A stretch of 64,000 nt of DNA from a bacterium (GCA_965213685.1 CBDBZY010000058.1:1-64000); one strand, 5' to 3'. Positions 13,920 to 39,519 are shown, counted from the first letter of the stretch. Notes: generated by a model not told the origin, from the letters alone. Numbers and translations: made by a program.

Positions 13920-14952
13920 CTACCCCTCCGAGCGCTGCCCGCTGAAAATCGCCTCGACGAAGGCGTCGGCGTCAAAATCCAGCAGGTCTTCCACCGATTC
14001 GCCCACGCCGACATACCGCACCGGTATGCCGCTCTCATACGTGGCGCCCAGCACCACCCCGCCCTTGGCCGTCCCGTCGAGCTTGGTGAGGACAAGGCCC
14101 GTCACGCCGAGGGCCGGGCCGAACTCCCGCACCTGGGAGAGCGCGTTTTGTCCCGTCGTGGCGTCCAGGACGAGGAGCACGTCATGGGGGGGCCGCGCCG
14201 ATCAGGCGCCCCGCCACGCGACGGAGCTTTTTCAGCTCCTCCATGAGATTCTTCTTCGTATGCAGGCGCCCCGCCGTATCCACGAGCAGGAGGTCGACGC
14301 CGCGCGCCTTCGCCGCCTGCGCGGCGTCATAGACCACGGCGGAGGAGTCCGCCCCCTCCTGGTGGCGGACGATTTCGCACCCGCTGCGCTCCGCCCATAC
14401 CGCCAGCTGCTCGCCGGCCGCTGCGCGAAACGTATCCGCCGCCGCGAGCATGACCTTGTGCTTCTGCGTCGAGAACCGCGACGCGAGCTTCCCCGCCGTC
14501 GTCGTCTTCCCCACGCCGTTGACCCCCACCAGGAACGCGACCCTGGGCGCGCCCGCGGGCGGCTCCCGGGGCGTGAACGCAGGGGGGCGCGCGGGGTGCG
14601 CCAGGAAAGAACGCATGATCTCCCTGACGCGCGCCTTCGGGTCCTCCCCGGCGCCCTCCCCCGCTTTCAGCCTTTCCATCAGCCTCTCGACGACGAGGGG
14701 GCCCAGGTCCGCCATATAGAGCGCCTCCTCCAACGCATCGAGTGCCTCCGCGTCGAGGCGTCCCGCCAGCAGGCCGCCCGCCCGGGCGAGGAAGCCGCCT
14801 CGCGTCCGGGCGAGGCCTGCGCGCAACCTGCCGAACCAGCCCTTGCCGCCGGCAGCCTCCCGCGCATCTTCTTTTTTCCAAAAACCAGGGGACAAGGATG
14901 TTCCCTCCCGCGCGCGCCATGACAAAACCGGGCCCGACTCCCCGCGCGCCAC
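13920..14952 (-). CDS. ftsY: Signal recognition particle receptor FtsY (apparent +1 error in G7 run 14186-14192)
   Basis: [24 protein letters not shown], then [21 protein letters not shown] in the second frame; joined by removing one base. Confidence 0.92.
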
Positions 14953-14993: not shown

Positions 14994-17900
14994 CTAGGCC
15001 GGCGATTCAGCCACCGCCCGCCCCGCGCCGTTCACCTTCGCCGCGCCTTCGCGATTCAGCTGGACGGAAACGATTTCTGAAACGCCCTTTTCCCGTTGCG
15101 TCACGCCGTAGAGCTGATTCGCGTATGACATGGTCTTCTTGTTGTGGGTGATGATGATGAACTGGCTCCGACCCTCGAGCTCCGCAATCACCTCCCGGAA
15201 GCGCGCGACGTTGGCGTCATCCAGGGTGGCGTCCACCTCATCCAGGATGCAGAACGGACTCGGCCGAACGCTGAACACCGCGAAGAGCAGGGAAAGCGCG
15301 GTGAGCGCCTTCTCCCCGGCGGAGAGGAGCATGATGTTGGAGGGACGCTTGCCCGGCGGCCGCACCTCAATGTCGACGCCCGACTCGAGGGGGTCGTCCG
15401 GATCGAGCAGGTACATGCGCGCCTCGCCCCCCTCGAACAGGCGCCCGAAAATGTCGGCGAAGGCGTTGCCCACCTCATTGAGTGCGGCCAGGAAGCGGGC
15501 CTTCGTCGTCCTGTTCAGCTTGCCGACCGTCGTGTGCAGGTCGGCGATGGAATTCTCCAGGTCCTGCTGCTGCTCCCGCAAGAATGCGTATTCCTGGTTG
15601 ATCTCGTCATACTCCTGCGCGGCCAGGGGGTTCACCTCCCCCATGCGGGAAAGCCTCTGGTTCAGCATCTCCAGGCGATTGCGCATCTCCTGGTAGCGGG
15701 GGAGTTCCTCCCGCCGGCTCCCGGCCGTCTCCTCGAGACGGATCCGGTATTCCGCCTCGGCGGATTCCAGCATGGCTTCCCGGCGGACGCGAAGGGTCGT
15801 CCGCCGCTCGGCCGCCGCGCGCGCGTCGTTCTGCAGGGCGGACGCCCGCCCCCGCGCCTCGCGAATCAGATCGCCCAGCTCCTCGTCGCGCGACTGCGCC
15901 TCCACCAGGGCGCCATGACGGGCGGCGCCCTCGGCCGCAGCACCGGCCTTCGCATCCCGGAGGGCGGCGATTTCCTCCTTGCTTTGCGCGAGGGTTTCCT
16001 GAAACCGCCCCCTTTTCTCCCCCGATTCGCGCTGCTCCCTCTCCCTGCGCATTCTGCGGGCCGCACTCCGGGATATTCCATCCGCAAGCCGCTCCGCCTC
16101 CGCCCGGCCGCCGGCGACCCGTCCGTTGAGATCCGTCAGGGCGACCTTTCTGTCCGTAAGGCGCGCCTCCGCCTCGGAATGCCGCCGGCCGGCGGCGCGC
16201 GCCTTCTCTTCCATCTGCTCTGTGCGGGAGGAGAGCTCCCGAACCGCCTCCTCCGCGCGCAGGCTTTCGTCCCGCGCCGCCCGCTCCTCATCCACGAGGC
16301 GCATCCGCTCCCCGTGCGTCCGCCGCCGCGCGGAGGCGAGCGCGGCCAGCCGCCTTTTCAGCTCCTCGCGCTTGTCCTCCGCCAGGCGGAGGGCGCCCTC
16401 CGCCTCCACGCGCATGACCTCGGCGCGCTGGTTCGCCTGCACCGCACGGTGCCGCTCCCGCTCCGCCCGCTCGAGTTCATCGCCCAGCCTCCGGGAGGTC
16501 GACGTCAACTCCAGGAGCTGCGCTTCGAGTCTTTCGACCTCTCGGCGCATCTCCTCGCGCCTTCTCGAGCGCTCCAGAAATCCCTCGTTGCGCGCCAGGC
16601 CGCCTTCCGCCGCGCCGTTCGCCCGAATGATCTCCCCCTCCAAAGTCACGCAACAGACGCCCTGCGGCCCGTTGCACCACGCCGCTTGCGCGGCGTCGAC
16701 GTCTTCGGTCACCACCACGTTTTCGAGCAGGGACGCCATCAGATGGCGATAGTCCGCGTCGCAGCGGACGAAATCCGCCGCCGCCCCCAGAACGCCCCCT
16801 CCCATGGGGGCGACGGTGGCTGGTCGCACGCTCGTCTCCATCGGCAGCGCCACCCCCCGCCCGGTGCCCGAGGCCACCAGCGCGCGAATCGCCTCCACCG
16901 CATCGCCCGGCGTTTGGACCACCACGCCCAGCAACGCTTCGCCGAGGGCCGCTTCGATGGCTTTTTCGAGCTTCGCGTCCACGCGGATGAGGTCGGACAA
17001 GGACGCCAGCACCCGCGCGCCGCAAGCCCGAAACGCCTCGGGGTCCGCAGCTCCGGTCGCACCGGAGGCGAGGATGCCCTCCAGGGCCGAGAGGGCGGAC
17101 CGCACCTCCATCAAGGATTCTTTCGTCTCGGCCACGGACTTCTCGTGGCGGCGCAACGCTCCGGACGCCTCCGCGCATTCGGAGCCGGCCCGCTCAAGCG
17201 CCCCCCTCGCCTGGCCTTCCGCCGCAACCAGCGATTCCACCCGGCCCCTCGCATCACGCACGCGGGCCTCGGCCGCCTCCAGCTGTCCCTCAAGCCCCCC
17301 TGCGTCGCCGGCCATCTTCTCTGCGGACTCGGCCAGTCCCTCCAGCCTGGATTCGATGGAGACGACCCGCTGGCGCGCCGCGCTCAGGCGCTCCCCCTCC
17401 TTCGCGCCCGCCCGCCTGACCTCGCCGAGCGCGCTCCCCAGTGCGCGCACCTCCTCCCGGGCGGCGGCCAGCTCGGCAGCGCCGGCGTCATGCCCGCGCC
17501 GCGCCAGGTCCGCTTGGGCCGCAAGCGTCTCCAGCGTGGAGGAAAGCGCCGTCCTCTCCCTCTCCAGTGCCGCGGTTTCCGCGTCCAGGGTCCGGATTTC
17601 ATCCGCGCGGCGCCCCTCCTCCGCGTCGAGTTCCACGAGGCGGCTGCCGAACATCTCGACCTGATTCTCCAGGCGCTGGAGGGCGCCCTCCACCTCCACC
17701 GCCCGGCGGCGGGCTTCGGCCAGCGCCTCCGAGCGCTCGGCCAGCAAAATACGCCCCTTTTCCCGCTCCGCTTCCAGGGAGGATATTTGCGCCGCAACCG
17801 CCTGTTCTTCCTCCTTGACGCGCTCATGCGCCTTTTCCACGGGCGCGAGCGCATCCACCAGCCGAAGGTAGTCGAGCATCAGGAGGCTTGCGGAGAGTTC

Positions 17901-18581
17901 GGCGACCTCGGTTCGGTATTCCTTGTGAAACGTCGCCTTTCTCGCCTGGCGGCGCAAGGAGCGCAGGCGCGCTTCTTTCTCGCGCATGACGTCGGCCACG
18001 CGAAGCAGGTTCGCCTGCGCGAGGTCCAGCTTCCGCAACGCCTCGTTGCGCCTGCTCTTGTACTTCATGATGCCGGCGGCCTCTTCAATCAGAAGCCGCC
18101 TGTCCAGGGGCCGCGCGTTGACGAGACTCTCGATCTTGCCCTGCTCCACGATGGAGAAGGTGTCGAGAGAGACGCCGGTGTCGAGAAACAAGTCGACGAT
18201 GTCCTTCAGCCGGCAAGGGTTGCGGTTGATGAGATATTCACTTTCCCCGGAACGATACAACCGGCGGGTGACCGCCACTTCGTCGAAATCCTTGAACGCG
18301 GGCGACGTCACCACGCCCCGGAGGTCGGCGACGCTGATCGAGACTTCCGCCATGCCGAGCTGCTTGCGCTCGGCACTCCCGTTGAAGATCACGTCCTCCA
18401 TCTTCTTCGAGCGCATGTTCCTGGGCGCCTGCTCGCCCAGCACCCAGCGCACGGCGTCGCACACGTTGCTCTTGCCGCAACCGTTGGGCCCGACGACGGC
18501 GGTAAGGCCCTCGCCGATTTCAATCACGGTCTTCTCGACGAAGGATTTGAACCCCTGCATCTCCAAGCGCTGGAATCGCAA
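14994..18581 (-). CDS. smc: Chromosome segregation protein SMC
   Basis: GFKSF, GPNGCGKSN, long coiled coils with hinge, LSAGEK signature, LDEVDA, ITH; TTG start after GAGGTG. Confidence 0.95.
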   Translation of the reverse strand: MRFQRLEMQGFKSFVEKTVIEIGEGLTAVVGPNGCGKSNVCDAVRWVLGEQAPRNMRSKKMEDVIFNGSAERKQLGMAEVSISVADLRGVVTSPAFKDFDEVAVTRRLYRSGESEYLINRNPCRLKDIVDLFLDTGVSLDTFSIVEQGKIESLVNARPLDRRLLIEEAAGIMKYKSRRNEALRKLDLAQANLLRVADVMREKEARLRSLRRQARKATFHKEYRTEVAELSASLLMLDYLRLVDALAPVEKAHERVKEEEQAVAAQISSLEAEREKGRILLAERSEALAEARRRAVEVEGALQRLENQVEMFGSRLVELDAEEGRRADEIRTLDAETAALERERTALSSTLETLAAQADLARRGHDAGAAELAAAREEVRALGSALGEVRRAGAKEGERLSAARQRVVSIESRLEGLAESAEKMAGDAGGLEGQLEAAEARVRDARGRVESLVAAEGQARGALERAGSECAEASGALRRHEKSVAETKESLMEVRSALSALEGILASGATGAADPEAFRACGARVLASLSDLIRVDAKLEKAIEAALGEALLGVVVQTPGDAVEAIRALVASGTGRGVALPMETSVRPATVAPMGGGVLGAAADFVRCDADYRHLMASLLENVVVTEDVDAAQAAWCNGPQGVCCVTLEGEIIRANGAAEGGLARNEGFLERSRRREEMRREVERLEAQLLELTSTSRRLGDELERAERERHRAVQANQRAEVMRVEAEGALRLAEDKREELKRRLAALASARRRTHGERMRLVDEERAARDESLRAEEAVRELSSRTEQMEEKARAAGRRHSEAEARLTDRKVALTDLNGRVAGGRAEAERLADGISRSAARRMRREREQRESGEKRGRFQETLAQSKEEIAALRDAKAGAAAEGAARHGALVEAQSRDEELGDLIREARGRASALQNDARAAAERRTTLRVRREAMLESAEAEYRIRLEETAGSRREELPRYQEMRNRLEMLNQRLSRMGEVNPLAAQEYDEINQEYAFLREQQQDLENSIADLHTTVGKLNRTTKARFLAALNEVGNAFADIFGRLFEGGEARMYLLDPDDPLESGVDIEVRPPGKRPSNIMLLSAGEKALTALSLLFAVFSVRPSPFCILDEVDATLDDANVARFREVIAELEGRSQFIIITHNKKTMSYANQLYGVTQREKGVSEIVSVQLNREGAAKVNGAGRAVAESPA

Positions 18582-18715
18582 ATTCAACACCTCACCGGGC
18601 GGACGTGCCTGATCCTCGCGGGGGGCGGCGCGAAGCGCCGCAAGGGCGGCAGGAATCAACAAGTTGCCAGAATTTCGCGGCGTCCGCAAAGCGAAGGGGC
18701 CGCCCCCACGGCGCG

Positions 18716-19470
18716 CTAGGCTTCCCCGAGCCTGTGAACCGCCTCCCGCGCGGCCGCCTGCTCGGCCTCCTTCTTCGTCGCTCCCCGCCCGTTTCCCCAT
18801 ACCCTGCGAGCGAGACGAACCTCGACCTCGAACTCCTTTTCGTGCTCGGGGCCGCTCTCCCGGACCAGGCGATAGCCGGGCAACTTGTTCCCCTTTTTCT
18901 GCGCCAGGCGCTGCAGGCGGCTTTTGAAATCCTGCGAGAGGGACTCCTCCTCCCGAAGGCCCGGCGTCCAGAGCCATGATTCCGCCCATTGTGCGCAGCG
19001 GTCATAGCCGGCGTCGAGATATATGGCGCCGACGAGCGCCTCGAGGGCGCCCGCCTCGATGGACGCCTTGCGTCGTCCGCCCGTCTTCTCCTCGCCCTTG
19101 CCCAGGCGCAGAAACTCCCCGAACCCGTGGCGCCGGAAAACGCTCGCCAGAGATCGGCCATTCACCCGCTCGGAGCGCAGGTGGGTCAGCACGCCCTCGT
19201 CATCCGCCGGAAAATCCCTCCAAAGCCTCTCCGTCACGATGAGCTGCAGGACGGCGTCGCCCAAAAACTCCAGGCGTTGGTTGGCTGCGGCGGGAGGCGA
19301 GCTTTCCTGGGAGAACGAGCGGTGCGTGAGCGCCTGAACGAGGAGCTCCTTGCGCGAAAACGAATAGCCGATCCGGGATTCGACTTCATCGAGCGTGAGG
19401 CGCTGCGCGCCGAAGGCGGGAGGCTTTTCCGTTCTCCCGCCGGCGGCGCCGTCCTTGCCGGGCGTATCAG
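18716..19470 (-). CDS. rnc: Ribonuclease III (start codon uncertain)
   Basis: ALTHRS, NQRLEFLGDAVL, EALVGAIYLD, dsRBD DFKSRLQ..GPEHEKEF..KKEAEQAAA. Confidence 0.92.
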
Positions 19471-27024: not shown

Positions 27025-28503
27025 TCACGAAGACTGCGATTCTCGCCCCTGCGCGGCACCGGACAACGGGCGGCGGGCCCCGCCGGGGGAGGAGGCGGAC
27101 TCCTTCGGCGGGGACAGGCTGTCCAGCATCGCGCGCCGCTCGTCCAAAACCCTCTGGAACGCCGGACGGAGCGCGCGGGGAAGCGGCATCCCCTTGGGAA
27201 GTTTCGCCTTCAGGGGGTCGAGGTATCGTCCCCGGCGGGTGATCCGGTAGTCGAGATGCGGCCCGGTGGACAGCCCGGTGGAGCCCACGTAGCCGATCAG
27301 CTGTCCCTGGACAACCTTTCGCCCCTTGCGAATCCCGCGCGCATATCGATACAGGTGGAGATAGGCGGTTCGGTAGCCCCCGCCATGGCGCAGCTTGACC
27401 ATCTTGCCGGCGGGGCCCTTGCGGCCCGCCCAGGTGACGACGCCGTCGGCCACCGCATGGACGGGCGTGCCCCGGGGAGCGGCGTAATCCACGCCGAGGT
27501 GGGGGCGGTAGCGCTTGAGCACGGGATGCAGGCGCCGCCTGGCGAAACGCGAGCTGACGCGCGTATAGCGTAGCGGAGAGCGCAAGAAGGCGCGCTTCAG
27601 GGATTCGCCCCGGAAGTTATAGTACCTGCCCCCTTTGTGGTCAAAATACACTGCGGCGTGGCGCATGCCCCGCACGGTGAGCTCGGCCGCCAGAATCTTT
27701 CCGTAGCCGACGAACTCATCGCCGAGATACCTGCGCTCCACCAACATTTTCAACTCGTCCCCGCTTTGCAAATCTTTGTGAAAATCCACGACGTACGCAA
27801 AAATGTCGCCCAGCCTGCCCGCGAGGACGGGCGCGCCTCCGCCGTCGGAGATCGCCCGATGCAGGGAGTGATCGATGCGGGACTGGATGCGGGCCACATC
27901 CACCACATAGGGAATCGGCTCCTCCTCCGCCTTCAGCCCGCCGCTCGGCGTTCGCGAGACCCGGAGCCTGCGCTCGCCGTTGAGGTGCAGAATGAATTCG
28001 TGAAACTCTTCCCCTCTTTTTTTCACCGCATATCGCCGGCCCGCCCGAACGCGCGAAAAAACGCGCCCCCCTTTACGGGTCGCCAGAATTCTCTGAATCT
28101 CGGAGTAGCGCAAGCCATGCGCGAGCAGCACGCCGATGACGGTATCCGTTCGCGAGAACTTGCCCGCGCGCACGGTGAGGGGGTCGCCTTTCGGCGGGCC
28201 GCCGCCTGGGGAGCGCCCCGGCGCATCGTCCTTCGATTCCCCGCGCCCCGGGTCTGCAGGCAGGCGGGCCATCTCCTCGACGCGCGCCGCTTTCTCGCGT
28301 GCGGCCACATCCTCGCGGACGGCCGGCCGCGCCGCGGATTTTTCAGGCGCAGCGGGAGGCGAATCCACGGGGGAGCGCCCCATGAGGAACGCGCCGACCG
28401 CGAGTGCCAGCAACGCGCCGACAACCCATATCCTCGCGGAATTGCCCCCGGCTTTCGGTTTGGGAGGAAATTGCGTGACGGGCCTTGCTCCCCTCCAGGC
28501 CAT
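27025..28503 (-). CDS. M23 family peptidoglycan DD-endopeptidase (MepM-like, membrane anchored)
   Basis: N-terminal TM; FLRSPL..SSRF..HPVL..HLGVDYAAP, YLHL, STGPHLDY (HxxxD and HxH zinc motifs). Confidence 0.9.
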   Translation of the reverse strand: MAWRGARPVTQFPPKPKAGGNSARIWVVGALLALAVGAFLMGRSPVDSPPAAPEKSAARPAVREDVAAREKAARVEEMARLPADPGRGESKDDAPGRSPGGGPPKGDPLTVRAGKFSRTDTVIGVLLAHGLRYSEIQRILATRKGGRVFSRVRAGRRYAVKKRGEEFHEFILHLNGERRLRVSRTPSGGLKAEEEPIPYVVDVARIQSRIDHSLHRAISDGGGAPVLAGRLGDIFAYVVDFHKDLQSGDELKMLVERRYLGDEFVGYGKILAAELTVRGMRHAAVYFDHKGGRYYNFRGESLKRAFLRSPLRYTRVSSRFARRRLHPVLKRYRPHLGVDYAAPRGTPVHAVADGVVTWAGRKGPAGKMVKLRHGGGYRTAYLHLYRYARGIRKGRKVVQGQLIGYVGSTGLSTGPHLDYRITRRGRYLDPLKAKLPKGMPLPRALRPAFQRVLDERRAMLDSLSPPKESASSPGGARRPLSGAAQGRESQSS

Positions 28504-28818: not shown

Positions 28819-29899
28819 ATGGGGCATCGCTTCATGTATCAGAATCTCATTGGTGACGCGGCGGCCATCTCCGCCACTTCCGCGGAAAGCGGATTCGTCG
28901 GCGCGGGCGTGCCCCGCGTCGCCAACGGGGGCGGGTCGATGATCTTCTCGGGCGCCTACTCCGGAGACGGGCAGGAAGTCTATGCCGTGGAAATCGACAC
29001 CCCGGGCGACGTGGGGGACGCCCGCTTCAAATGGCGGAAGACGTCGACCCCCAAGGGCGGCTGGGAGGCCTGGAACGTGCCCACCGCCCCGACGGACGCC
29101 GCCCTGGATTCGGACGTGAAGGTTCGCTTCGTCAACGGGGCGCATCCGCCGGCGTTCGCCCTGGGGGATCGCTGGCAGGCGACGGCGAACCGCTTCCGCT
29201 CGCCCGGAAGAATCTACGACCTCGACCCCGGCTCCGGGGTGCGGAGCGCCTCGCCGCCCGAGGACGCCTGGGCACTTGGCGTGGATTTCGGCGCTGCGAA
29301 ATCGCCCGACGTCCTCATCGTCCACCAGCACAACTTCGCGCCGGGGACAAGACTCCGGATTCAGGCGAACGCCTCGGCGCACTGGGGTGCGCCCGCACTC
29401 GAGGAGGAGGTCGCCTGGCGGAGCGCCACCCTCGTCCACTACCTCGCCGCCACGCCCCGCTCGCATCGGCACTGGCGCCTTCTCTTGGAAGGCGGCGCCG
29501 CCAACCCGGACGGCTACCTGGAAGCGTCGGAAATCTATCTGGGCGGTTATTTTGAACCCGCCGACCATTTCTGGTTCAACAACGTGGTGGGAGAGGAATC
29601 TTTTGAGGAGTTCCGCGCGACGGAGAGCAGGGCGGAACGCCCGGTGCTCCTGAACCGGGGCCGCACGGCCACCCCTCCCCTATCAACACGTCTCCGACGA
29701 GCAGCGCGGCCGGTTTCTCGCCATGTACCAGGCGGTGAAGGACGTGGAAGCGAGGCGCGCCAAGCCCCTTTTCGTCCATCTGGACGTGGACGATCCCGCC
29801 TCGGTCATGCTCGCCGACCTCATGGGCGGCTTTCTGCCGCGCCAGCAGGGGCCGAACGACTTCTCCTTCGAGCTGGAGTTCAAGGAGAGACTCTCATGA
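28819..29899 (+). CDS. Phage distal-tail (Dit)-like structural protein, about 359 aa after removing one C at 29672-29675
   Basis: GGAGGGGG RBS; WRLLLE..NPDGYLEASEIYLGGYFEP resembles siphophage tail-tip proteins; corrected frame continues ..LPYQHVSDEQR..KPLFVHLD..FSFELEFKERLS* and ends in an ATGA overlap with the next gene. Confidence 0.6.
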
Positions 29900-30429
29900 G
29901 ACGCGCCACGGACAAGGCCATCGCGGACATCGCCAGGCATGAAGGCAAAACCGCGTTCGTCCTCTATCACCTGTCCACCGCCAGCGGGAAGCGCGTGTTT
30001 TGCGGGAAGCGGCCCCCCGACTCCCTGGTAGGGCAAGGGGGGCAAATCTATTTCCTCGACGGCGTCCGGCTCCTGGATGGCTCCCTCCTCCTCGGCGAGG
30101 GCGCGGAGACCCTCCTGGGCGTTCACGATTGGGTGAAGGATGGCGGCCGCTTCTCCCTCGGCGCGTTTCAGGGGCTCTCCGCTCTCGAAGCCTTTCGGGA
30201 GAAGGAATTGTCCGGCCTCACGATATCCATCCACAACGCCCCCGACGCGGACGGCCACGCGCGCATGAGCCGCATCCTCGCCACGGAGCCGATCGTGGGC
30301 GGGAGGATGGACGTCCGGGTGGGGTTTTCTGGACAAACCATATCCGACGTCCTCTCGCTGGCGAGCTTCACGGTACGCCGGGTCATCGAGCGCATCGACC
30401 TCGTCACGATAGAATGCGAGGGAAGCTAG
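29896..30429 (+). CDS. Phage tail hub-like protein (177 aa)
   Basis: ATGA coupling and GGAGAG RBS; YFLDGVRLLDGSLLLG motif seen in phage tail/baseplate proteins; beta-rich C-terminus; synteny. Confidence 0.55.
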   Translation: MRRATDKAIADIARHEGKTAFVLYHLSTASGKRVFCGKRPPDSLVGQGGQIYFLDGVRLLDGSLLLGEGAETLLGVHDWVKDGGRFSLGAFQGLSALEAFREKELSGLTISIHNAPDADGHARMSRILATEPIVGGRMDVRVGFSGQTISDVLSLASFTVRRVIERIDLVTIECEGS

Positions 30430-31641
30430 ATGGCCGACCTGACGAAAGACCGACTCTCGGATTCCTTTCCGATGGCGCGCGCCTCGCGATACAGCACCCC
30501 CGAATTCGAGGACGAAAGCCTCCCCATCGTCTATGGAGACGTAACCAGCCCGCCCCGCGCGCGGGCGGGAGTCTATGCGCCCCCGAAAATAGACGCCGCC
30601 GGCGCCGGCGTCTATTGCGTCGCCGGACACGAGATAGCGGGCGACGTCCGCCTGTTCGACGATGACGGCCGCATCGCGGAGGGCGACTACGCGCTGGACC
30701 TCGCCTCGAACTACCAGGGCAAGGGCGTCATCGCGACCGCCGCCTTCTCCGTTCCGCCAAACGGGCGCGTGACCGCCGTGTGCAAGGGCAAGAAGGACGC
30801 GGCGGGCACACTCATCGAAAACCCCGCCGGCATCGTCGAGGATCTGATGACCAGCGTCTGGGGGTTCAGCGAGCGGGACATCGACATGCAGTCCCTCGCG
30901 CGCGCAGCCGCCCGCGCGGACGCGCTGGGCTATCGGGGAGCCGGCATACTCATGGAGGACAGCGCGCCCGCCGACGTGCTCACGGCGCTACTGGGCGATT
31001 TTCTCGGCCGCTATGAAATCGACCCGTTCGGCCGCCTGGGGATTCGCATCGCCGGAGAGGAGTCCTTCGCCATTCTTCCCCAGAAGGTTCTGCCCCGCTT
31101 CCACGAATCGCGCGTCGAGGCGCACCTCGCGCGCGACACCGTCATCAACCAGGTGCCGACGCTTTATGCGCGGGACTACCTCGGCGGGCGGCACATGCGG
31201 CACGACGACGGGGAGGCCACCAAAAACGCATCCTCCCAAAGGCTCTACGGCGTCCGCAGACCCCCGCAAAGCCCGCTTCCGCTCGAGTGGGTGCGGCGAG
31301 AGAGCGTGGTCGCCAGGGTGCAGTCCCGCATCGTGGAGCGCTACCACCAGCCCACGCGGATGCTCACCATCGAGGACGTCACCCTCCGGGCGATCGAGGT
31401 CGAACCCGACGACTACGTGGCGTTCAGCGCGCCGTGGATGCGCTCGGAGAAGCTCGAACCCCTCGTCAATCAAATCGGGGAGGTGGTGGAGGTGCGCTGC
31501 GACCTCGACGAGCAAAGGATGGAACTCAAGATTCGGGACACCGGATTTTTCTTGACGTCCGCGTCTGGCCTCGCGGGTGCGCACACACTGAAAGGCGGTT
31601 GGCTTTTGGGCGCGGAGCGCGACGCCACCGCCTACGCATAG
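30430..31641 (+). CDS. Phage tail/baseplate hub (Tal/central fibre-like) protein, 403 aa
   Basis: LPIVYGD, IENPAGIVEDL, SQRLYGVR, IEVEPDDYV motifs typical of phage tail hub proteins; abuts previous stop codon. Confidence 0.6.
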   Translation: MADLTKDRLSDSFPMARASRYSTPEFEDESLPIVYGDVTSPPRARAGVYAPPKIDAAGAGVYCVAGHEIAGDVRLFDDDGRIAEGDYALDLASNYQGKGVIATAAFSVPPNGRVTAVCKGKKDAAGTLIENPAGIVEDLMTSVWGFSERDIDMQSLARAAARADALGYRGAGILMEDSAPADVLTALLGDFLGRYEIDPFGRLGIRIAGEESFAILPQKVLPRFHESRVEAHLARDTVINQVPTLYARDYLGGRHMRHDDGEATKNASSQRLYGVRRPPQSPLPLEWVRRESVVARVQSRIVERYHQPTRMLTIEDVTLRAIEVEPDDYVAFSAPWMRSEKLEPLVNQIGEVVEVRCDLDEQRMELKIRDTGFFLTSASGLAGAHTLKGGWLLGAERDATAYA

Positions 31642-31652
31642 GGGAGAACACG

Positions 31653-32594
31653 ATGTCCATCGGCGCCGACCTGTCCGCCCGCTACACAGAAGAGGCCGTC
31701 GGCGGCGGCCATCCGACGAAAGCCCGTGTCATCGACCGCCTCGCTCTCGCCGCCTTGTTCCAGGACGGAAAAATCAGGGCCCACAGGCAACCCGTCGAGT
31801 GCGCGGGCAGGCTCGACTACGTGAACGAGACCACCCTGGCATTCCGGCCGACGCTCCGCTCCGCCTATTGTCCCGCCGTCGCAAACCCCACCGCGGGGCG
31901 CCATGTGCCCTTCATCGACGGGGCGTCGGGCGACGTCTATTATGAGGATTTGCCCTGGGCGGGCATCACGATAACGAACGAGGGCCTCGCGGCAAACACC
32001 TCCTATTCCGTCTTCGTCCGCGACGATGGGCCGGTGCGCAGGCTCGAATTCCAGGCGGCGGCATCCTGGGCGTTCGACCCCGCCACCGGCCTGGCCCACA
32101 AGACGGGCGATAAGAGCCGCACCCTCGTCGGCATCGCCAGAACGAACAGCGCGTCGCGCTTCTCCCTCGCAAACAACGTGCTCGTCCGAAGCTTCTGGAA
32201 CAAGGCGGTATACGCCGCCGAATCCACCGGCCAGATCGCCACGACCAGGTCCACGACCTGGGCCTCCATCAACACGCAGGAGATATTGATGTGGCCGGGC
32301 CACGACGTCGTGCACCAGAAAGCGAGCGGGAACGGATGGGTGAGCTCGACGCAAACCCCGGGGCTGGTGGGCCTCGACATGGGCCTTCGGCTGTTCAACG
32401 GGACGGGGCAAGCGTATCCGGAAACCGAGATCATCGGGTCGTCAAGCAATGAGAAGGATAGTTTCGGGATGGCGAAAACGCAAATCTACTCGGGCGCGTT
32501 CGCCAGGGCGCACTCCACACTCGTCTTTCGCGTGAAGCGCACGGCCACCCTGAGCGTCGGGGACTATCTCTTCCAGAGCATCATCCTGATTTAG
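31653..32594 (+). CDS. Putative tail fibre / receptor-binding protein, 313 aa
   Basis: GGGGAG RBS; LAANTSYSVFV..LEF..KTGDKSRTLVGIART..SFWN module recalled from phage fibre proteins; Ser/Thr-rich beta C-terminal domain. Confidence 0.5.
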   Translation: MSIGADLSARYTEEAVGGGHPTKARVIDRLALAALFQDGKIRAHRQPVECAGRLDYVNETTLAFRPTLRSAYCPAVANPTAGRHVPFIDGASGDVYYEDLPWAGITITNEGLAANTSYSVFVRDDGPVRRLEFQAAASWAFDPATGLAHKTGDKSRTLVGIARTNSASRFSLANNVLVRSFWNKAVYAAESTGQIATTRSTTWASINTQEILMWPGHDVVHQKASGNGWVSSTQTPGLVGLDMGLRLFNGTGQAYPETEIIGSSSNEKDSFGMAKTQIYSGAFARAHSTLVFRVKRTATLSVGDYLFQSIILI

Positions 32595-32603
32595 GAGACC
32601 AAC

Positions 32604-33300
32604 ATGGAAATCGAAGCGACCAAGGGCGTCGGCCCGCATTTTCGCGGCGAGCTGGAAGCGATGGGGCTCGCGCATCTCTACCTGGGCAGTGCGCACAGCC
32701 TGCGGGCGAACATGACGCCCGACGCCGCCTGGCGGCCGGGACCCGGCGAGGCGGAAGGCGCCCGCCCGGAAATCCGGGGGGACCGGGACGGACGCCTGGG
32801 TCATCCGCCTGGCGGACGAGACCAGCGAAGCGGAGCGCGAGGCCATCATCGCCGCCCACGACGCGCACGCCCCCGACGGCGTCGCCCAGATTCACAGAGA
32901 CCGGGGCAAGGAGAAGCTCCACCTGCTGCTCAACAGCGCCAAGGCGCGCGTCGTGGGCGTGCCGGCGAGTGCTCTGGGCGGCAAACTCGCCGAGTATGGG
33001 GAGAAGGCCAACCTCATCGACGACTGGAAGCGGGACGCGGACTCCGACAAGCTCGCGAAGCCGGCGTTTTTGCTCATCAAAAACAGGAAAGACGCGCATC
33101 CGGCGCGCTACGCCTCGGGCCAAAGCGTGGTGGATGAATGGGCGACCCGAAGAGGGGTGCTGCGCGGCAAGCTCGCCTCTCTCCTGAAAATCTACGACGA
33201 AGGCGTGCGCGACATCCAGGATGCGAACGCCACTCCGACCGTGGCGGCCCTGGACGCCAGAATCGACGGGGCCGCCGCCGCTTTCGACGCCGTCAGCTGA
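32604..33300 (+). CDS. Putative tail-fibre assembly/chaperone protein, about 231 aa after removing one G at 32776-32781
   Basis: AGGAG RBS; ORFs 32604 and 32953-33300 join in one frame after a single deletion; helical C-terminus ending ..DIQDANATPTVAALD; lies directly after the fibre gene. Confidence 0.45.
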
Positions 33301-33683
33301 TGGCACCGGAGCCGAACGGAAAGGGGCTTCAGATTTTTCTGGCCATCCTGAGCGTCGCCGGCCTGGGCGTCGCCGCCTACACCCCGCTCTACAACCAGAT
33401 CGTGAACGTGGAGGCGCGCCTGGCGGCCCACATGCGCGAGCGCGGCCACCCCTGGCTTCTGGAGAACAACGCGGGCGCGCGCGTCCGCTTCCAGGAGGTG
33501 GAGACCCAGTTTCGCGAAGCCAAGACGATAGCCGATCTCAAGTTTCGGGAGCTCAAGGAAACCGCCCTGAAAAAAACGCGCGAGGACGCCCGGGCCTTCG
33601 GGCAAATCCTGCGCCGCCTGCGCGCGACCGAAATCGCGCTCGCCAGGCTGAGCGAGCGCCTTCCAAGGGAGCGTCAACCATGA
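33300..33683 (+). CDS. Small membrane-anchored coiled-coil protein (holin/lysis-like), 127 aa
   Basis: TGATG coupling; single N-terminal TM LQIFLAILSVAGLGVAAY then charged coiled coil; position of the lysis cassette after tail genes. Confidence 0.5.
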   Translation: MAPEPNGKGLQIFLAILSVAGLGVAAYTPLYNQIVNVEARLAAHMRERGHPWLLENNAGARVRFQEVETQFREAKTIADLKFRELKETALKKTREDARAFGQILRRLRATEIALARLSERLPRERQP

Positions 33684-33829
33684 TTCCCCATCTCCTCGCC
33701 GTGCTCTTCGCCGCAGCGACCGTCCTCTGCGCGGTCGCAGCCATCGAGCCGCGCCTCATCACGAACCACCTGTGGCATTTCATCAATCCCTGGGCGGCGC
33801 GGAACGGCCGACCGGGCGGCACATCCTGA
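33680..33829 (+). CDS. Small hydrophobic protein, 49 aa
   Basis: ATGA overlap, AGGGAG RBS; MIPHLLAVLFAAATVLCAVAAIEPRLIT.. single TM or signal peptide. Confidence 0.45.
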   Translation: MIPHLLAVLFAAATVLCAVAAIEPRLITNHLWHFINPWAARNGRPGGTS

Positions 33830-33963
33830 GAAGCGAGCGGCGATCCGCCCCCATACGGAAGCGTCCGCACCCGAAAAGGAACGCTTCTGTTGCCAGGGGC
33901 GAAAAAATGGTGTAATTTTCCCGCGTGCGTTGACAAGCCGCCTCCGCATGCCTGGAGATACTT

Positions 33964-34530
33964 GTGAACCCCGAACCCCGCGCGCACGAGAAGACGCCCG
34001 CACCCTGGGGGCGCGTCGGCGTCCTCGCCCTGTCATGTTTCCTGGTCGTGGCGTGCGGGCCCCTGCGCTCCAGGGAAGTGGACACGATACGCTACAGAAA
34101 ATGCTCCGTCACCACCCTGATAAACTACGAGACGCGCACGACGAGCCACCTGCTCGTATGCAATGGCGATCCCGACAGCGGGCAGCCAAAGAAAGTACCG
34201 CACGCGGCCATGAGCTGCGAACCCGGGAAACCGGTCCAGATAGTGCTCTACCCGGGCAGTCGCCAGTTTCATTTCGAGGAATTCATCGCCGTCCGCTACC
34301 GCTTCAACGGGCATGCGCCCGTGAGGAGCACGTGGCTCTGGCTGCCAAGCACCGGGTCAGCGGGCGTCGTGGCGCCCCCCTCCATCCTGAAGGACTTTCT
34401 GGCCGGCATCACGGCCCGGGAAATCCTGGCGTTTCAAGTCGGGAGCCTGCGGGGGCAGGTCAATTTCCGAAAATACGCGCTAAGAGCGCTCCACGATTGG
34501 AGGAACCGCTGCGCCGCTTCGGGGAGGTGA
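33964..34530 (+). CDS. Putative lipoprotein of unknown function, 188 aa
   Basis: GGAG RBS with GTG start; hydrophobic stretch ending in lipobox-like LVVA-C; several Cys; VRYRFN..W core. Confidence 0.55.
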   Translation: MNPEPRAHEKTPAPWGRVGVLALSCFLVVACGPLRSREVDTIRYRKCSVTTLINYETRTTSHLLVCNGDPDSGQPKKVPHAAMSCEPGKPVQIVLYPGSRQFHFEEFIAVRYRFNGHAPVRSTWLWLPSTGSAGVVAPPSILKDFLAGITAREILAFQVGSLRGQVNFRKYALRALHDWRNRCAASGR

Positions 34531-34605
34531 GGGGTCCGCCCGCCCGGACACGCCCGCCTCCTCGCCACCCCCTTCGCTCCCGGTCGGAGCCCCGAACGAA
34601 CGCCC

Positions 34606-34717
34606 CCATCCAACCCCGCGCCTTTTCGCATTTGCCATGCCCCACGGCGTCCACCCGTCTCTTGGCAGGAGACCTCGGACCATCAAACCCCGCGCCTTCT
34701 CGCATTTGCCATGCCCC
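34606..34717. repeat. Direct repeat pair, period 74 nt
   Basis: AACCCCGCGCCTT(T/C)TCGCATTTGCCATGCCCC at 34612-34643 and 34686-34717 (31/32 identical; extends 6 nt leftward with one more mismatch). Confidence 0.9.
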
Positions 34718-34812
34718 GGCCCCCTCCCGCCGCCGATACACTGCGCCCCGTCCGCCCCCGCGCGGAAGCGGCGGGGAGGGGAGGCGCATCTCACTCGAAA
34801 ACGGGGGAGCCC

Positions 34813-36708
34813 ATGCCGGAGCATCGCCACACCATCTCATTGAGCAGGAGAATCGACCTCGACATCTCCAACGCCCTGAAAGCGATGGGCTCTCTCAAAA
34901 AAGCGAAGCGCGCCTACGAGGAGAGCCTCGGGAAATGGGGAGAAGGCCGAAAGACGGGGGGAGCGTCCCTCGCGCTGTCTTTCCTGGAGAACCTCGCCGA
35001 CAAGACGGACGGTGCCGGCAGGGCGTTCACGAGGCAGCGCAAATCGGCCCGGCTGCTGGGCAAGGACTACCGCGTCCTGGCCGAGGCGCAGAACGCCGCG
35101 ACAGGCGCCATCGAGGAGGGAGCGCGCGCGGCGGGCCGGGCGCGCGCCGCCACGGACGCGCTGGACGACCAGGCCCGCGCGCACCGGGCGACGCTGGAAA
35201 AATCGAGCGCGGCCACCGCGACATCAGCGGAAAAACTCCGGGGCGTCACCCATTCATCCAGGGCAGCCGCCGCCGGGATCGACGCCGTGGGCAAAAGCGC
35301 GGCGAATACCGCCGGACTCGAGAAACTCACCAGGGCCTGCGATAAGCTCAAAAAGAAAACCACGGAGACCTCCGACGTCCTCCGGATCGCCAAAAGCGCG
35401 GCGAACGACTTCGCCGAGGCGAGCGGGGAGTCGCTCACCCAGTTTCTCTCCGACGCCCTCGCCGGCAAAATCGACAACGCCAAGGAGTTGTTCAACGACC
35501 TGAAAGACCACGCCATCAAGATGGTGCGGGACGCCGTCACCCAGATGGCGAGCGAGCAATTCATCCAGCCGCTGGTGGGCAAGCTGAAGGACGCGGGCGC
35601 GGGGCTGCTGGGCGACCTCGGCTCCGGGCTCCTGAAGATATTCGGTTTCTCCAAAGGCGGCCTGGTGAAAAAACCGACCCTGGGCGTCATCGGCGAGGCG
35701 GGGCCGGAACTCGTGCTGCCGCTGGCGAAAATCGGCGGCGAGGAGGGGCTCTTGCGCCTGTTCAAATCCGTCTCCGAGATCGAGGCGGCGAACCGGATCG
35801 GCGGGACGGCGATCCCCACCCAGGCGGGCGCCGAGGCCAGCGGCGCCCTGGCCGCGCGAATCGCGGCCGCGAGGGCGGCGTCGACCCTGCAAATCGTTCT
35901 CTCCACCATGCAGTTCCTGAGCGGCCCCAAAAACCTGAAGACGGGCGCGAATCTGGGCATCAACGTCGCGGGCGCCCTCCCCGGGCTCGCGGGTGCCACG
36001 GGACTCGCCGCCTTCGGGCCGGCGGCGGCCGCCTTCCTGGCCACCGACGTTCTCTTCAACAAGGGGGGCACCATCAAGAAGGGGCTTTCCCTCATCGGCT
36101 TCAAGGGACTCCTCAGCAAGTCCACGCCCTTCACCAGGAAAATGGGGAATCTCTCGCAGGCGGCCGGGCTGTATCGGACCCTCGACCGGTTTCTCAGGAC
36201 GGGCGAGGCGCGCGAGCGGGAGGACGTGTCGTTCCCCAAGGCGGTCTACCGAGGCACGATGAGTCCGGAAGGCATCCTGCGCAAGGAGGTCGGCCCCGCT
36301 TTCCAGCTCATCCGACGCTCGGCGGAGGCCGATGGCCTCTCTCCCCTGGAGGGGGTGCGCCGCTACTTTGGCGAGGAGTTGTACGCCGCCTATCTGCACT
36401 CGCTACCCGTCTTCGAGGGCGACGCGGCGGGGCGGTTCGTCAAGCGCTCCGCGCTCCGGCTCGTGGGCGAAGCCGGGCCCGAGCACATCGTGAACGTGAA
36501 CCACCCGCAATCCATCGACTTCTTTCAGCGCGGCGTGCGGCCCATCATCCGCGACGCCATACGGGAGGAACGCGCCGCCAGCGGAGGCGACACGCACGTC
36601 TATCACATTCACATCGAGGGAAACCTGATCGAGGATCGGACGCTCGAGAAGCTCTCGAGAAAGCTCGAAGACATCCAGAGGCGCCGCCGCCGCTACGGGC
36701 GCGCCTAG
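34813..36708 (+). CDS. Phage tape-measure-like protein, 631 aa
   Basis: GGGGGAG RBS; Ala/Lys-rich helical N-terminal half; FSKGGLVKKPTLGVIGEAGPELVLPL and a second LVGEAGPEHIV, matching the F-x-x-GG..GEAGPE C-terminal motif of siphophage tape measures; ends HVYHIHIEG..RRRRYGRA. Confidence 0.75.
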   Translation: MPEHRHTISLSRRIDLDISNALKAMGSLKKAKRAYEESLGKWGEGRKTGGASLALSFLENLADKTDGAGRAFTRQRKSARLLGKDYRVLAEAQNAATGAIEEGARAAGRARAATDALDDQARAHRATLEKSSAATATSAEKLRGVTHSSRAAAAGIDAVGKSAANTAGLEKLTRACDKLKKKTTETSDVLRIAKSAANDFAEASGESLTQFLSDALAGKIDNAKELFNDLKDHAIKMVRDAVTQMASEQFIQPLVGKLKDAGAGLLGDLGSGLLKIFGFSKGGLVKKPTLGVIGEAGPELVLPLAKIGGEEGLLRLFKSVSEIEAANRIGGTAIPTQAGAEASGALAARIAAARAASTLQIVLSTMQFLSGPKNLKTGANLGINVAGALPGLAGATGLAAFGPAAAAFLATDVLFNKGGTIKKGLSLIGFKGLLSKSTPFTRKMGNLSQAAGLYRTLDRFLRTGEAREREDVSFPKAVYRGTMSPEGILRKEVGPAFQLIRRSAEADGLSPLEGVRRYFGEELYAAYLHSLPVFEGDAAGRFVKRSALRLVGEAGPEHIVNVNHPQSIDFFQRGVRPIIRDAIREERAASGGDTHVYHIHIEGNLIEDRTLEKLSRKLEDIQRRRRRYGRA

Positions 36709-36798: not shown

Positions 36799-38061
36799 TC
36801 AGGTGAGCGGGTCGAGTCCCAGCACCGCGCGGCGCACGAGCTCCATCGCATAGACCGGCGCGCGCGACTGCACGAACCGCTCGTTGCCACCGAAGCTCGA
36901 GGAGAAGGCGAAAACGTCCGCGCCCGTGTCCAGGGCCATGTGCGTGGGGCCCAGCGCCGGCGCCCGGCGGGAGTTCTCAGGCTCGATGTTCTCGGGCGGA
37001 TTCGGGCCGAAGACGGCGAGTCCCATGTCGGCGCCCGATTGTTCGCGCACCTCTCGGGCGAGGGCTCTCGCGAAGCTCCCGGCCTCCCCGCCCCCGTCCA
37101 CCCCGAACATGCCCGACAACTCTTCCGCATGAAGGCCAACGACGCCGCGCTTGAGGAACTTCACGCGATCCGGCCAGGCGTTCAGCCTCTGGATCAAGGC
37201 GCCGCCGGTGTTCGACTCGACTATCGCGATGCTCTTGCCGCTCTGCCCCAGCACGCGCGCCAGCGTCTCCTCGAGCGTCGCGTCGCCCGTGGCGTAGATG
37301 GCGGAGCCCAGGATTTCGCGCACCTTCACCTCCAGCCCGTCGATCATCGTTTCCGCCTCTTCGATGTCCGAGGCCCGGGCGGTGATGCGCACATCCACCT
37401 GCCCGGGGTGGGCGAGCACGCCGATGCTCGGGTTCACCGATTCGCGGAACAGGTCCGAGATCATCTCGTCAACCCGCGATTCGCCGAGGCCGCAGGTCTT
37501 CAGGGTGCGGGTGCGGATGACCTCGCCCAGGGCGAATTTCTCCTGCAGGATGGGCAGCGCGCACTCGGCGATGATGTAGCGCATCTCGTGCGGGACGCCC
37601 GGGCTCACGATGATGACCCCCCTCTCATCCTCGCACATGAAGCAGGGCGCCGTTCCGCGGGGGTTCTCGATGGGGGTCGCGCCGGCGGGGATGTAGGCCT
37701 GCTTCTTGTTGTTGTCGCTCATCCGAAAGCCGCGCCGCTGAAAGTAGGCGCTGATGTAGTCGTACAAATCCTCCCGGAACTCCAGCGGCACGCCCATCAC
37801 CCTGGCGCAGGCCTCTCGCGTCAAATCATCCACCGTCGGGCCAAGCCCCCCCGTGGTGATCACCACCTCGGAGCGCTCGTGCGCCTGCCGGATGACGCCG
37901 GCGATTCTGTCCAGGTTATCGCCGACGGTGGTCTTGAAATGCATGTTGACGCCTATCGACTTGAGCTGGTTGGCGATGAAGGCGCTGTTGGTGTCGATGA
38001 GGTCGCCCAGGAGCATCTCGGTGCCGATGGCGACGATCTCACCGCGAATAAGCTCTGCCAT
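36799..38061 (-). CDS. cinA: CinA family protein (molybdopterin-binding-like N-domain plus PncC-like C-domain)
   Basis: IGTEMLLGDLIDTNS, VGDN, TGGLGPTVDDLTR, NPRGTAP, PGVPHEM, ESNTGG. Confidence 0.9.
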   Translation of the reverse strand: MAELIRGEIVAIGTEMLLGDLIDTNSAFIANQLKSIGVNMHFKTTVGDNLDRIAGVIRQAHERSEVVITTGGLGPTVDDLTREACARVMGVPLEFREDLYDYISAYFQRRGFRMSDNNKKQAYIPAGATPIENPRGTAPCFMCEDERGVIIVSPGVPHEMRYIIAECALPILQEKFALGEVIRTRTLKTCGLGESRVDEMISDLFRESVNPSIGVLAHPGQVDVRITARASDIEEAETMIDGLEVKVREILGSAIYATGDATLEETLARVLGQSGKSIAIVESNTGGALIQRLNAWPDRVKFLKRGVVGLHAEELSGMFGVDGGGEAGSFARALAREVREQSGADMGLAVFGPNPPENIEPENSRRAPALGPTHMALDTGADVFAFSSSFGGNERFVQSRAPVYAMELVRRAVLGLDPLT

Positions 38062-38282
38062 GAACCGTTCCTTTATGTCGAAATCCTCGAACGCCGCTCC
38101 CCACAGGAGGTTCGCATAGTAGAGGAGCGGGCCTCCGGCGGCAAGGACATGATCCGGGCCGGATGGGGAGCAGCTCCGTCACAGGTTGCGTATGCGGAAG
38201 CGCTAAGGGGAGCGCCTGGAAGTGGACGAGACCTGTATCGGCGGCGAGGGAGGCGGCGGGCGCGCGCGGGCTCGGGGCGCCG

Positions 38283-38699
38283 CTACTTCTTCTCACATTT
38301 AAAGAATTGGCTGGGTTTAACCCGGTCCTGTGATGTGAAATCTGTGAAATCGTAATATAGTCCTATCTTCTTCGGCGTAATGATGAATGCGTATTTGTAG
38401 CCTTTTCTTCCAAAGTCCGGTCCAAAGTCCCATCGCCGATTAATTCCTTGGACTGTGAATTCCGCCCCATGCGTGTCCCCGAGACTTTCGACTTCACCGA
38501 AATCTAAGAAATCGGAGTTTGTGATTCTCAGTCTCCGTCGCGTGAGTTTGACCAGCGCGGTTCGATTGTATTGCCGCGTGTATTCGAAAAAATCAAAACA
38601 TTCCCATTGCTCGATGATTTGGAATTCTTCCTGAGCGTGGGTCGGGTTTGCGCAACAGACCAGAACGGCGATGAGGATATGCCGAAGCGCCGGTTTCAT
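38283..38699 (-). CDS. Hypothetical secreted protein (low GC)
   Basis: Open frame with G-rich RBS, signal peptide ending THA-Q; visibly AT-richer than flanks. Confidence 0.65.
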   Translation of the reverse strand: MKPALRHILIAVLVCCANPTHAQEEFQIIEQWECFDFFEYTRQYNRTALVKLTRRRLRITNSDFLDFGEVESLGDTHGAEFTVQGINRRWDFGPDFGRKGYKYAFIITPKKIGLYYDFTDFTSQDRVKPSQFFKCEKK

Positions 38700-38787
38700 G
38701 ATCCCCCCCTTGGCAATCAAAATCAGGAGAAAATCGTATTACCTCTCCGCAGGGCGCATCAAGCGGACAATCGCCAAGGGGACACTC

Positions 38788-39519
38788 TCAAGACGGCGCG
38801 ATCAGCCCGGAGAGGGCGAGCCAGCGCTCGAACCAGCGCCGCGCGCGTCGGTTCAAACCTTCCAGGTATGCCGGCGCATCGCGCAATATCGCCTGCGGCT
38901 CCGCATCCGAGCGCGGAGATTTCACATCGTCCCCGAACGCATCCAGCCATGCGGCTATGTCGTCGAACCCGACTTCGAGGTGAAACTGAAAGGCGTAGGC
39001 GCACTCTCCCCAGCGGAACGCCTGGTGGGGATACCGCGCGGAGGTCGCCAGGTGCACGGCGCCTTCCGGCAGGTCGAACGTATCCCCGTGCCACTGGAAA
39101 ACGGGGAAGGACGGCGCCTCGTCCCCGAGCAGCGGGTCCGCCTTCGCCTGCTGCGTCAACGCTACCGGAAACCAGCCGATCTCCTTTTTCTCCGCCGCCG
39201 GATACACGCGGGCGCCCAACGCGGCCGCCATGAGCTGCGCGCCCAGGCAAAGGCCGTAGACGGGAACCCCCGAGCGGACGGCCTCGCGAAGAAAACGAAT
39301 CTCATCCCCCAGCCAGGGATGTTTCTCCTCCTCATACACGCCCATGGGGCCGCCCAGGACGACGATGGCCCGGGCGCCCTCCAGCGCATCCGGAGAGCGC
39401 GGGAGGCGCTCCCCCCTGTGGAGGGCGACGTATCGGGACGGGACGCCTTTTTGCGCGAGCACCTCCTCGAGCAGGGAGAGCCTCTCCACGTCCACGTGCT
39501 GAAGCGCCAGAACCGACAA
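38788..39519 (-). CDS. Type 1 glutamine amidotransferase-like protein
   Basis: LQHVDVE, LGGPMGVYE, GLCLGAQL, FQWHGDTF, FQFHLE (Cys-His-Glu triad); TTG start inferred. Confidence 0.88.
   Translation of the reverse strand: MSVLALQHVDVERLSLLEEVLAQKGVPSRYVALHRGERLPRSPDALEGARAIVVLGGPMGVYEEEKHPWLGDEIRFLREAVRSGVPVYGLCLGAQLMAAALGARVYPAAEKKEIGWFPVALTQQAKADPLLGDEAPSFPVFQWHGDTFDLPEGAVHLATSARYPHQAFRWGECAYAFQFHLEVGFDDIAAWLDAFGDDVKSPRSDAEPQAILRDAPAYLEGLNRRARRWFERWLALSGLIAPS

Follow-up and report, generated by a model that had tools for sequence, protein, structure and literature searches.

To our knowledge, few gene transfer agents (GTAs) of independent origin have been described, and almost all work has been carried out on the alphaproteobacterial one, RcGTA (Rhodobacter capsulatus and alphaproteobacterial relatives), the genes of which are spread over several loci. 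BaGTA (Bartonella), VSH-1 (Brachyspira), Dd1 (Desulfovibrio) and VTA (Methanococcus) are further, independent captures of tailed phages. The known tail bacteriocins (R- and F-type pyocins) have lost their head genes. Here, we analysed a 64,000-nucleotide stretch of bacterial DNA (GCA_965213685.1 CBDBZY010000058.1:1-64000), referred to below as the window, which belongs to a 95-kb contig (about 65% GC) of assembly G000. Positions 28819-36708 carry nine co-oriented genes on the + strand (g1-g9), described in a first-pass annotation as a phage tail module and a candidate domesticated tailocin or split GTA locus. We consider it likely that they are one part of a domesticated, split head-tail particle system of the host, most probably a GTA of independent origin. 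The module (locus C) and two further loci, A (terminase and portal) and B (capsid to tail tube), are single-copy and syntenic among core genes, are under purifying selection, have co-diverged with the host and are present or absent together.

As in RcGTA, a siphovirus-like head-tail gene set is located on the chromosome at several loci and is inherited vertically under purifying selection; no replication, integration or lysogeny genes were found at the three loci, the annotated immediate flanks of which are host metabolic or core genes. The system differs from RcGTA in its capsid, a protease-capsid fusion (PF25209 / NF045541-like) in a genus in which the HK97 capsid model PF05065 had no match in 17/17 genomes searched, in its gpA-like terminase (PF05876), apparently split into two open reading frames (ORFs), and in its host lineage, labelled Nitrospinae, Nitrospinota or Tectomicrobia. 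The g9 product reached 28.9 bits against the NCBIfam family RcGTA_tape (cut-off 220), and no RcGTA-named NCBIfam family was matched by the other 20 proteins scanned. Judged by its sequences, the system is not a member of the RcGTA family, and it looks like an independent domestication. It shares with the other GTAs the independent capture of a tailed phage by one host lineage, whereas the three-locus split (packaging / head-neck-tube / tail tip) and the permuted tail module are particular to this genus. A full-text search (Nitrospin*, Tectomicrobia, sponge symbionts) of the literature outside subscription journals and supplements showed, among the papers listed, no report of a GTA from this lineage. 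With the closest capsid of a cultured phage, that of Microcystis phage Mae-JY22, the protease-capsid fusion aligns over 81% of its length at only 30.7% identity; the ancestral phage is not close to any sequenced isolate.

The first-pass annotation had proposed a host-maintained tail-tip kit with its tube and head genes elsewhere in the genome, and these genes were located. The models usually employed for capsid, portal and terminase genes (PF05065, PF04860, PF03237, PF03354 and phrog_2) gave almost no matches in the genus. In two distant relatives (G027 and G032), genes resembling g1 and g3 are found within ordinary siphophage-type prophages that hold a protease-capsid fusion, a portal, a terminase and a strong tape measure. 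With the capsid family of these prophages, phrog_29592, a single open gene (700-800 aa) was detected in 21 of the 23 genomes of the genus. The capsid surfaced only via phrog_29592; searches with the standard models alone would have wrongly suggested that there were no head genes. PF05065 misses even G027 and G032, though phrog_29592 and PF25209 detect their protease-capsid fusions. This type of phage escapes the common Pfam models for capsid and terminase, and 'no capsid' calls resting on PF05065 alone are unsafe for it; behind a 'tail-only' island, the other two thirds of a complete particle system can lie elsewhere in the genome.

The protease-capsid fusion, the tail tube (PF18906), the terminase ATPase and the portal are each present in single copy in 21/23 genomes of the genus; in G000 the capsid gene lies on another contig, C31. 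Locus B comprises the protease-capsid fusion (PF25209), two small genes, an HK97-gp10-like neck gene, a 177-aa gene, the tail-tube gene (PF18906) and a 128-aa gene; its gene order is identical in 4/4 genomes and it is bounded by a diadenylate cyclase gene and by cupin/F420-ligase genes. Locus A, comprising the gpA-like terminase ATPase (PF05876), a nuclease ORF and the portal, is located about 10 kb from locus B across host dehydrogenase and monooxygenase genes. In five complete chromosomes loci A and B are at least 1.0 Mb away from locus C.

The large terminase consists of two ORFs in 5/5 genomes (G000:C31:~17380-19281, - strand; L030:13217-14946 in G001; L025, L027 and L028), the ATPase ORF matching positions 26-344 of phrog_675 and the nuclease ORF positions 362-547. 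At the junction, which is the same in all five, the first ORF's TGA stop overlaps the start codon (ATG or GTG) of the second, with a GGAGG ahead of it. From its sequence, the large terminase is naturally split, a peculiarity that is open to testing and possibly connected with non-specific packaging. Across the genus, the ATPase ORF shows 71-80% identity. Used as a query against five genomes, the G032 prophage terminase retrieved nothing, the terminase of the genus belonging to another family.

The module by itself, tail-tip and tape-measure genes being the only phage genes in the window, would suit a stand-alone F-type non-contractile tailocin, built from these genes alone or with those of the tube locus. 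It resembles the F-type pyocins and monocins as a domesticated non-contractile tail, with tape-measure, hub and fibre genes set among host genes. Tailocins lack capsid, portal and terminase genes, whereas here these are retained and co-inherited: they occur in the same 21/23 genomes as the module and are absent from the same two, the tube gene shares one operon-like row with the genes for capsid and neck, and head and tail genes form one cluster in two genomes of a sister genus. A tailocin is therefore highly improbable, since head and packaging genes have been kept alongside the tail genes; of the two first-pass proposals, the split GTA-like locus found support and the tailocin did not.

The two genomes of the genus without a match in every search, that for g3 included, are G009 and G010 (99% and 95% complete, respectively). 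The site is empty in both, with cinA directly adjoining the M23 peptidase gene. A three-gene tree does not place the two as sisters, G010 grouping with G014 and G008 at 100/98 support; because both lack all loci and are not sisters, all loci seem to have been lost together twice. Across the order, the capsid gene was detected in 35 and g3 in 33 of 44 genomes, many of which are fragmented bins; both genes were found in 31, neither in seven, the capsid gene only in four and g3 only in two.

The ancestral arrangement can be read from the sister genus. In G041 a single row holds the capsid, neck and tube genes, the post-tube gene p128, a 572-aa tape-measure gene, g1 (with a LamG insert), g2, g3 and g4; from the tape measure onwards (tape measure, Dit-position gene, small gene, hub, fibre) this is the canonical siphophage order, as in T5 and lambda. 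In G048 the row runs from the portal and capsid to the tube, p128, a 4.3-kb gap, g1, g2 and g3, with the cupin/F420-ligase flank of locus B at its end. As the capsid-to-hub genes are contiguous in these two genomes, the segment from tape measure to tip has left the cluster in the genus of the window. The tape measure is the last gene of the module because of this relocation, the order in the sister genus being tube, tape measure, g1, g2, g3. If the segment had passed through a circle that opened between the tape measure and g1 on reinsertion, exactly the permutation seen would result. The comparison thus catches one contiguous cluster breaking up into three loci, which bears on how such elements become locked into a host.

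Conservation was assessed for all three loci. Intact, single-copy g3 is present in 20 of the 22 other species of the genus (68-78% identity). In 7/7 relatives examined the whole module is syntenic, from the hexapeptide-transferase/M23 genes to cinA (87-88% identical in relatives), with M23 absent at this place in three of the seven. All module genes except g8 are open in these relatives, g2 of G007 having a different C-terminus. Median dN/dS values were 0.17-0.39 for the module genes versus 0.09-0.22 for the host genes of the flanks, with dS at 0.5-0.7 in both sets (the tables leave out g5a, g7 and g8 as too short or paralogous). The module values are not near 1, and on both counts, synteny and dN/dS, the locus behaves as the host-maintained one that the first-pass annotation had suspected. 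Pairwise dS in the module and in the host flanks was strongly correlated (Spearman 0.94; 15 non-independent pairs from six genomes, those of eight in which all three host genes were available). The genes of loci A and B gave dN/dS values of 0.19-0.49 at host-like dS (nuclease ORF 0.22, portal 0.19). A value of 1.85 (dN 2.1) for the F420-ligase flank was an alignment artefact and was not used.

These values bear on the idea that the loci are functionless remnants of old prophages, scattered by rearrangement and either hitch-hiking or slowly decaying. The dispersal of the genes and the lack of integrase and lysogeny genes would agree with it, as would broken copies such as the interrupted tube gene of G013, the frame breaks of G048 and G045, in which the capsid and g3 searches retrieved fragments only. 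Against it, the frames are open in about 20 species at dN/dS 0.17-0.49, the gene set is present in 9/11 genera of the order and the loci were lost jointly in two non-sister genomes. With frames intact at dS 0.5-0.7, neutral remnants are very unlikely.

Two module genes are interrupted in the window. Codon-position GC indicates a frame switch near 29670 in g1 (28819-29899, +) and near 32710-32780 in g5 (32604-33300, +), and the breaks were traced to one extra C in a C run near 29672 and one extra G in a G run near 32776. The extra base is absent at both sites in the Logan contigs of 4/4 public runs (X1-X4, all from one study) compared over 28819-33300; X1 and X2, possibly derived from the very sample behind the window, show no other difference from it, and X3 and X4 represent a variant with 33-34 single-nucleotide polymorphisms (SNPs). 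Both genes are single open frames (359 and 231 aa, respectively) in 7/7 relatives. Because the extra base is absent from all four runs and the ORFs are intact in all seven relatives, the breaks are assembly errors; the genes are intact and not decaying, as the first-pass annotation had held in finding no decayed gene fragments. The g1 and g5 sites are those among the G000 frame breaks that the comparison with the runs covered.

G000 is a mixed assembly (71 contigs in three GC classes of about 65, 50 and 45%; 7.97 Mb in total) with indel errors, which would favour a chimeric-assembly artefact or, in a related vein, a satellite-like mobile element dependent on a helper phage. Single contigs from independent runs cover the full 4.5-kb stretch compared, with 0 (X1) or 34 (X3) differing letters, and the same host-gene junctions recur in seven complete or draft relatives. 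These two observations rule out a chimera. No att-like or other flanking direct repeats were found at the module ends, and dS of the module equals that of host genes. Either explanation is scarcely credible. One-base indel errors are also seen in core genes of G000: FtsY (window 13920-14952, -) is split at 14180/14182, as are, on contig C31, a luciferase-like gene and a cupin gene. The portal gene of G000 reads in three frames; the places noted on C31 include 16116-17476.

The identification of the particle as a non-contractile one rests largely on g3 and g9. An AlphaFold2 model of the g3 product (30430-31641, +; 403 aa; baseplate hub or tail-associated protein, Tal, gp27-like) was built from 28 homologues (pLDDT 82.4, pTM 0.77). 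Searched against the PDB with Foldseek, it matched the DT57C baseplate (E 7.7e-11) and the T5 pb3 tail tip (4.5e-10, TMq 0.56), with TMq 0.55-0.57 for the two; further matches were obtained to phages Chi and JBD30, the lambda tip, a chain of the RcGTA virion (6tba, E 2.4e-6) and T1. On the strength of this model, g3 is a siphophage-type baseplate hub with the hub-domain fold, as the first-pass label (hub/Tal) had it. It shares this fold with T5 pb3 and the lambda gpJ/gpL tip and differs from them in consisting of the hub core only, without the long C-terminal extensions of pb3 or gpJ. At the sequence level g3 had no match in 50,697 phage records.

The g9 product (34813-36708, +; 631 aa, 559-631 aa within the genus) contains the GEAGPE motif twice. 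It matches phrog_1535 ('tail length tape measure') at 3.2e-7, the match covering mainly the GEAGPE region; orthologues reach 2.2e-12 and also match phrog_1272 and phrog_4070. The homologous 572-aa gene of G041 is located between p128 and g1. The PHROGs matches together with this position in the sister genus support the reading of g9 as the tape measure, as had been supposed from the motif.

Three features expected of a GTA are, as read from the genomes, present: chromosomal tailed-phage structural and packaging genes, no self-transmissible unit, and vertical inheritance with purifying selection. A complete non-contractile particle set that is dispersed and host-inherited is the genomic signature of such an agent. 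We propose that the nine genes form the distal-tail module and that the remainder of the particle would come from loci A and B. Expressed together by the host, the three loci would yield non-contractile tailed particles in which g1, g2 and g3 form the tip, the tube polymerizes on the tip around g9 to a tail length of about 85-95 nm (at 0.15 nm per residue) and g4 binds the target cell. With at least 1 Mb between loci A/B and locus C, and no gene for replication or integration found at any of them, such particles should be unable to carry their own genome; most likely they would package host DNA, as a GTA does.

Several observations weigh against this proposal. The large terminase, of putative activity, is divided between two ORFs in 5/5 genomes. 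No small terminase and no recognizable holin or endolysin was found with Pfam, PHROGs or NCBIfam in the module and loci A and B. The G000 portal reads in three frames. A Dit fold was not detected in the model of a g1 orthologue (L017), the C-terminal 110 residues of which are poorly modelled. The dN/dS values of g9, p113 and the gp10-like gene (0.39-0.49) are above those of host genes. Frame breaks occur in g2, p113 and the terminase ATPase gene of G048, and the system may be decaying in some lineages. Nearly all of the genomes are metagenome-assembled, and the relatives are non-independent samples.

Within the species, g5 differs between the window and the X3/X4 strain by 13 non-synonymous and two synonymous changes, compared with six and 11, respectively, in g1-g4, a pattern that could reflect diversifying selection or recombination at the target-recognition end. 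SNP density between the two strains climbs from g1 towards g4-g5. This pattern, the variable g8, the split terminase and the failure to find a small terminase in the searches above would also fit an arms race over targets or self-protection, and hence a domesticated head-tail particle serving another purpose: killing of competitors, delivery, or adhesion in a sponge-associated habitat, with packaging incidental or lost. The anatomy and conservation expected of such a particle are the same as those of a GTA. The terminase ATPase, the nuclease and the portal have nevertheless been kept, the latter two at the low dN/dS values given above, and a killing tail needs none of them; we regard this alternative as unlikely.

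Returning to the GTA proposal, we give about even chances to a more specific version of it, in which an independent GTA is old enough to be shared by most genera of a Nitrospinota/Tectomicrobia-labelled, partly sponge-associated family of uncultured bacteria and has a two-subunit large terminase, the tip segment was excised as a circle and reinserted more than 1 Mb away, and g5 and g8 set the recipient range or self-protection. If the GTA proposal is true, tailed phages have been domesticated by hosts for their own use more widely than assumed, and sponge-associated communities have a candidate route for gene exchange.

The layout of the module agrees with the first-pass description of co-oriented, overlap-coupled genes with ribosome-binding sites and host-like GC between an M23 peptidase gene and cinA. 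ATGA overlaps couple g1 to g2 and g6 to g7, TGATG couples g5 to g6, and at the g2/g3 junction a TAG is immediately followed by an ATG. GGAG-type ribosome-binding sites precede six genes (g1, g2, g3, g4, g5 and g9); a promoter scan before g1, g8 and g9 gave no usable result. The GC content is 0.65-0.69 in the module and 0.57-0.71 in the rest of the window. The left neighbour is a host M23 peptidase gene (27025-28503, -; Csd3-like; PF01551 at 4.9e-30, PF19425) and the right neighbour is cinA (36799-38061, -; PF00994, PF18146, PF02464). Elsewhere in the window Pfam identified core genes (SMC, rnc, fabF/D/H, plsX, uvrB/C, PBP1, ribosomal proteins and secY). The Pfam scan covered 61 ORFs or ORF pieces, some small ORFs being left out, and within this set no integrase, repressor, terminase, portal, capsid, sheath or tube was found outside the module, as had been stated in the first-pass annotation. 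In g1-g9 themselves there was no Pfam match even at E up to 10, and the sub-threshold RcGTA_tape match was the only one in NCBIfam.

The product of g1 stands in the Dit position: in G041 and in the G027 prophage its gene follows immediately on that of the tape measure and thus lies between tape measure and hub. It matches phrog_8610 (2e-8). The model of the L017 orthologue (pLDDT 72) matched a CBM32 domain (Z 10.5) and viral tail proteins (E 2e-8, BFVD), and no Dit chain was among the Foldseek/VIA matches, residues 250-359 being of low confidence and barely tested. The first-pass label of Dit fits the position; the domain recognized is a CBM32/discoidin-like jelly roll, and the usual Dit fold was not detected in this model. 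In other genera of the family, g1 homologues of about 570-600 aa (P0032-P0037, P0073-P0078; L036:10155-11960) carry a LamG domain (PF13385), as do some g3 homologues of about 640 aa; LamG is absent from the genus of the window. In a large protein collection all homologues of g1 and g3 are unnamed, except for fused forms called 'LamG domain-containing', and their metagenomic source bins bear the labels Nitrospinae, Nitrospinota, Nitrospinaceae or Tectomicrobia.

The g2 gene (29896-30429, +; 177 aa), for a small tail-tip protein of no named family, is always directly upstream of the hub gene and is 73-82% identical within the genus and 27% identical in G026. It had no Pfam, PHROGs, NCBIfam or PDB sequence match. 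As leads only, its nearest Atlas clusters are viral hypothetical proteins, and 7/30 Atlas matches belong to a family set in the top cluster of which 13% of the members carry PF09931. The g4 gene (31653-32594, +; 313 aa) follows the hub gene, as does the tail-fibre gene of G032 (phrog_863), and its N-terminal HPTK motif is common to the G026 homologue. No Pfam, PHROGs or PDB sequence match was found for it; its nearest Atlas clusters are viral, one having PF21916 (mtd_2nd) in 65% of its members. Position and this language-model lead make g4 a candidate fibre or receptor-binding protein, as a lead only; the first-pass 'fibre' was not confirmed by a family match. Alignment profiles of g1, g2 and g4 gave chance-level matches only against PDB sequences.

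The first-pass labels of chaperone (g5) and lysis genes (g6-g8) found no family support: fast-changing g5 had no match in Pfam, PHROGs or NCBIfam, and no lysis family was matched by g6-g8 in the same libraries at E up to 0.01. Libraries of this kind frequently miss small membrane proteins. The g6 product (33300-33683, +; 127 aa) has one N-terminal hydrophobic segment (window of residues 7-31), the remainder being polar; it is 76-84% identical in relatives (dN/dS 0.17), and its sole PHROGs match is to phrog_34951 (unknown function; E 0.0045). The g7 product (33680-33829, +) is a small membrane protein with a hydrophobic N-terminus, of 49 aa here and 40 aa in most relatives, conserved in 7/7. 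The g8 product (33964-34530, +; 188 aa) has a hydrophobic window at residues 13-36 and a LVVAC lipobox, read by eye, which predicts a lipoprotein. Its copy number varies between species, with 0 to 3 tandem copies of 31-42% identity among relatives (e.g. L009 10825-12567; L010 11097-12755). The spacer before g9 contains two direct repeats (34606-34717, +; 38-nt copies, 95% alike, 74 nt apart), and the sequence around the g8 start recurs at 34669-34695; the repeats and this copy could be the remnant of a lost tandem g8 copy.

Three further observations were made in passing. In G013 (C2:994499-997423) the tail-tube gene is interrupted by about 1.8 kb between query residues 239 and 233, which could represent an insertion element or decay of the system. 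Within about 5 kb after its terminase and portal genes, G026 (L018:16548-19442, L014:380-10730) has a g1-like gene of 904 aa, then g2, g3, a g4-like gene and a lytic transglycosylase gene; no tape measure or tube was recognized at this locus, and the element could be a short-tailed relative of the ancestral phage. In the window, a low-GC stretch (38001-39000; 0.57) lies between cinA and an amidotransferase gene, and an ORF there (38283-38720, -; 145 aa, hydrophobic N-terminus), for which tblastn gave no match in nine loci searched, is probably a strain-specific insertion.

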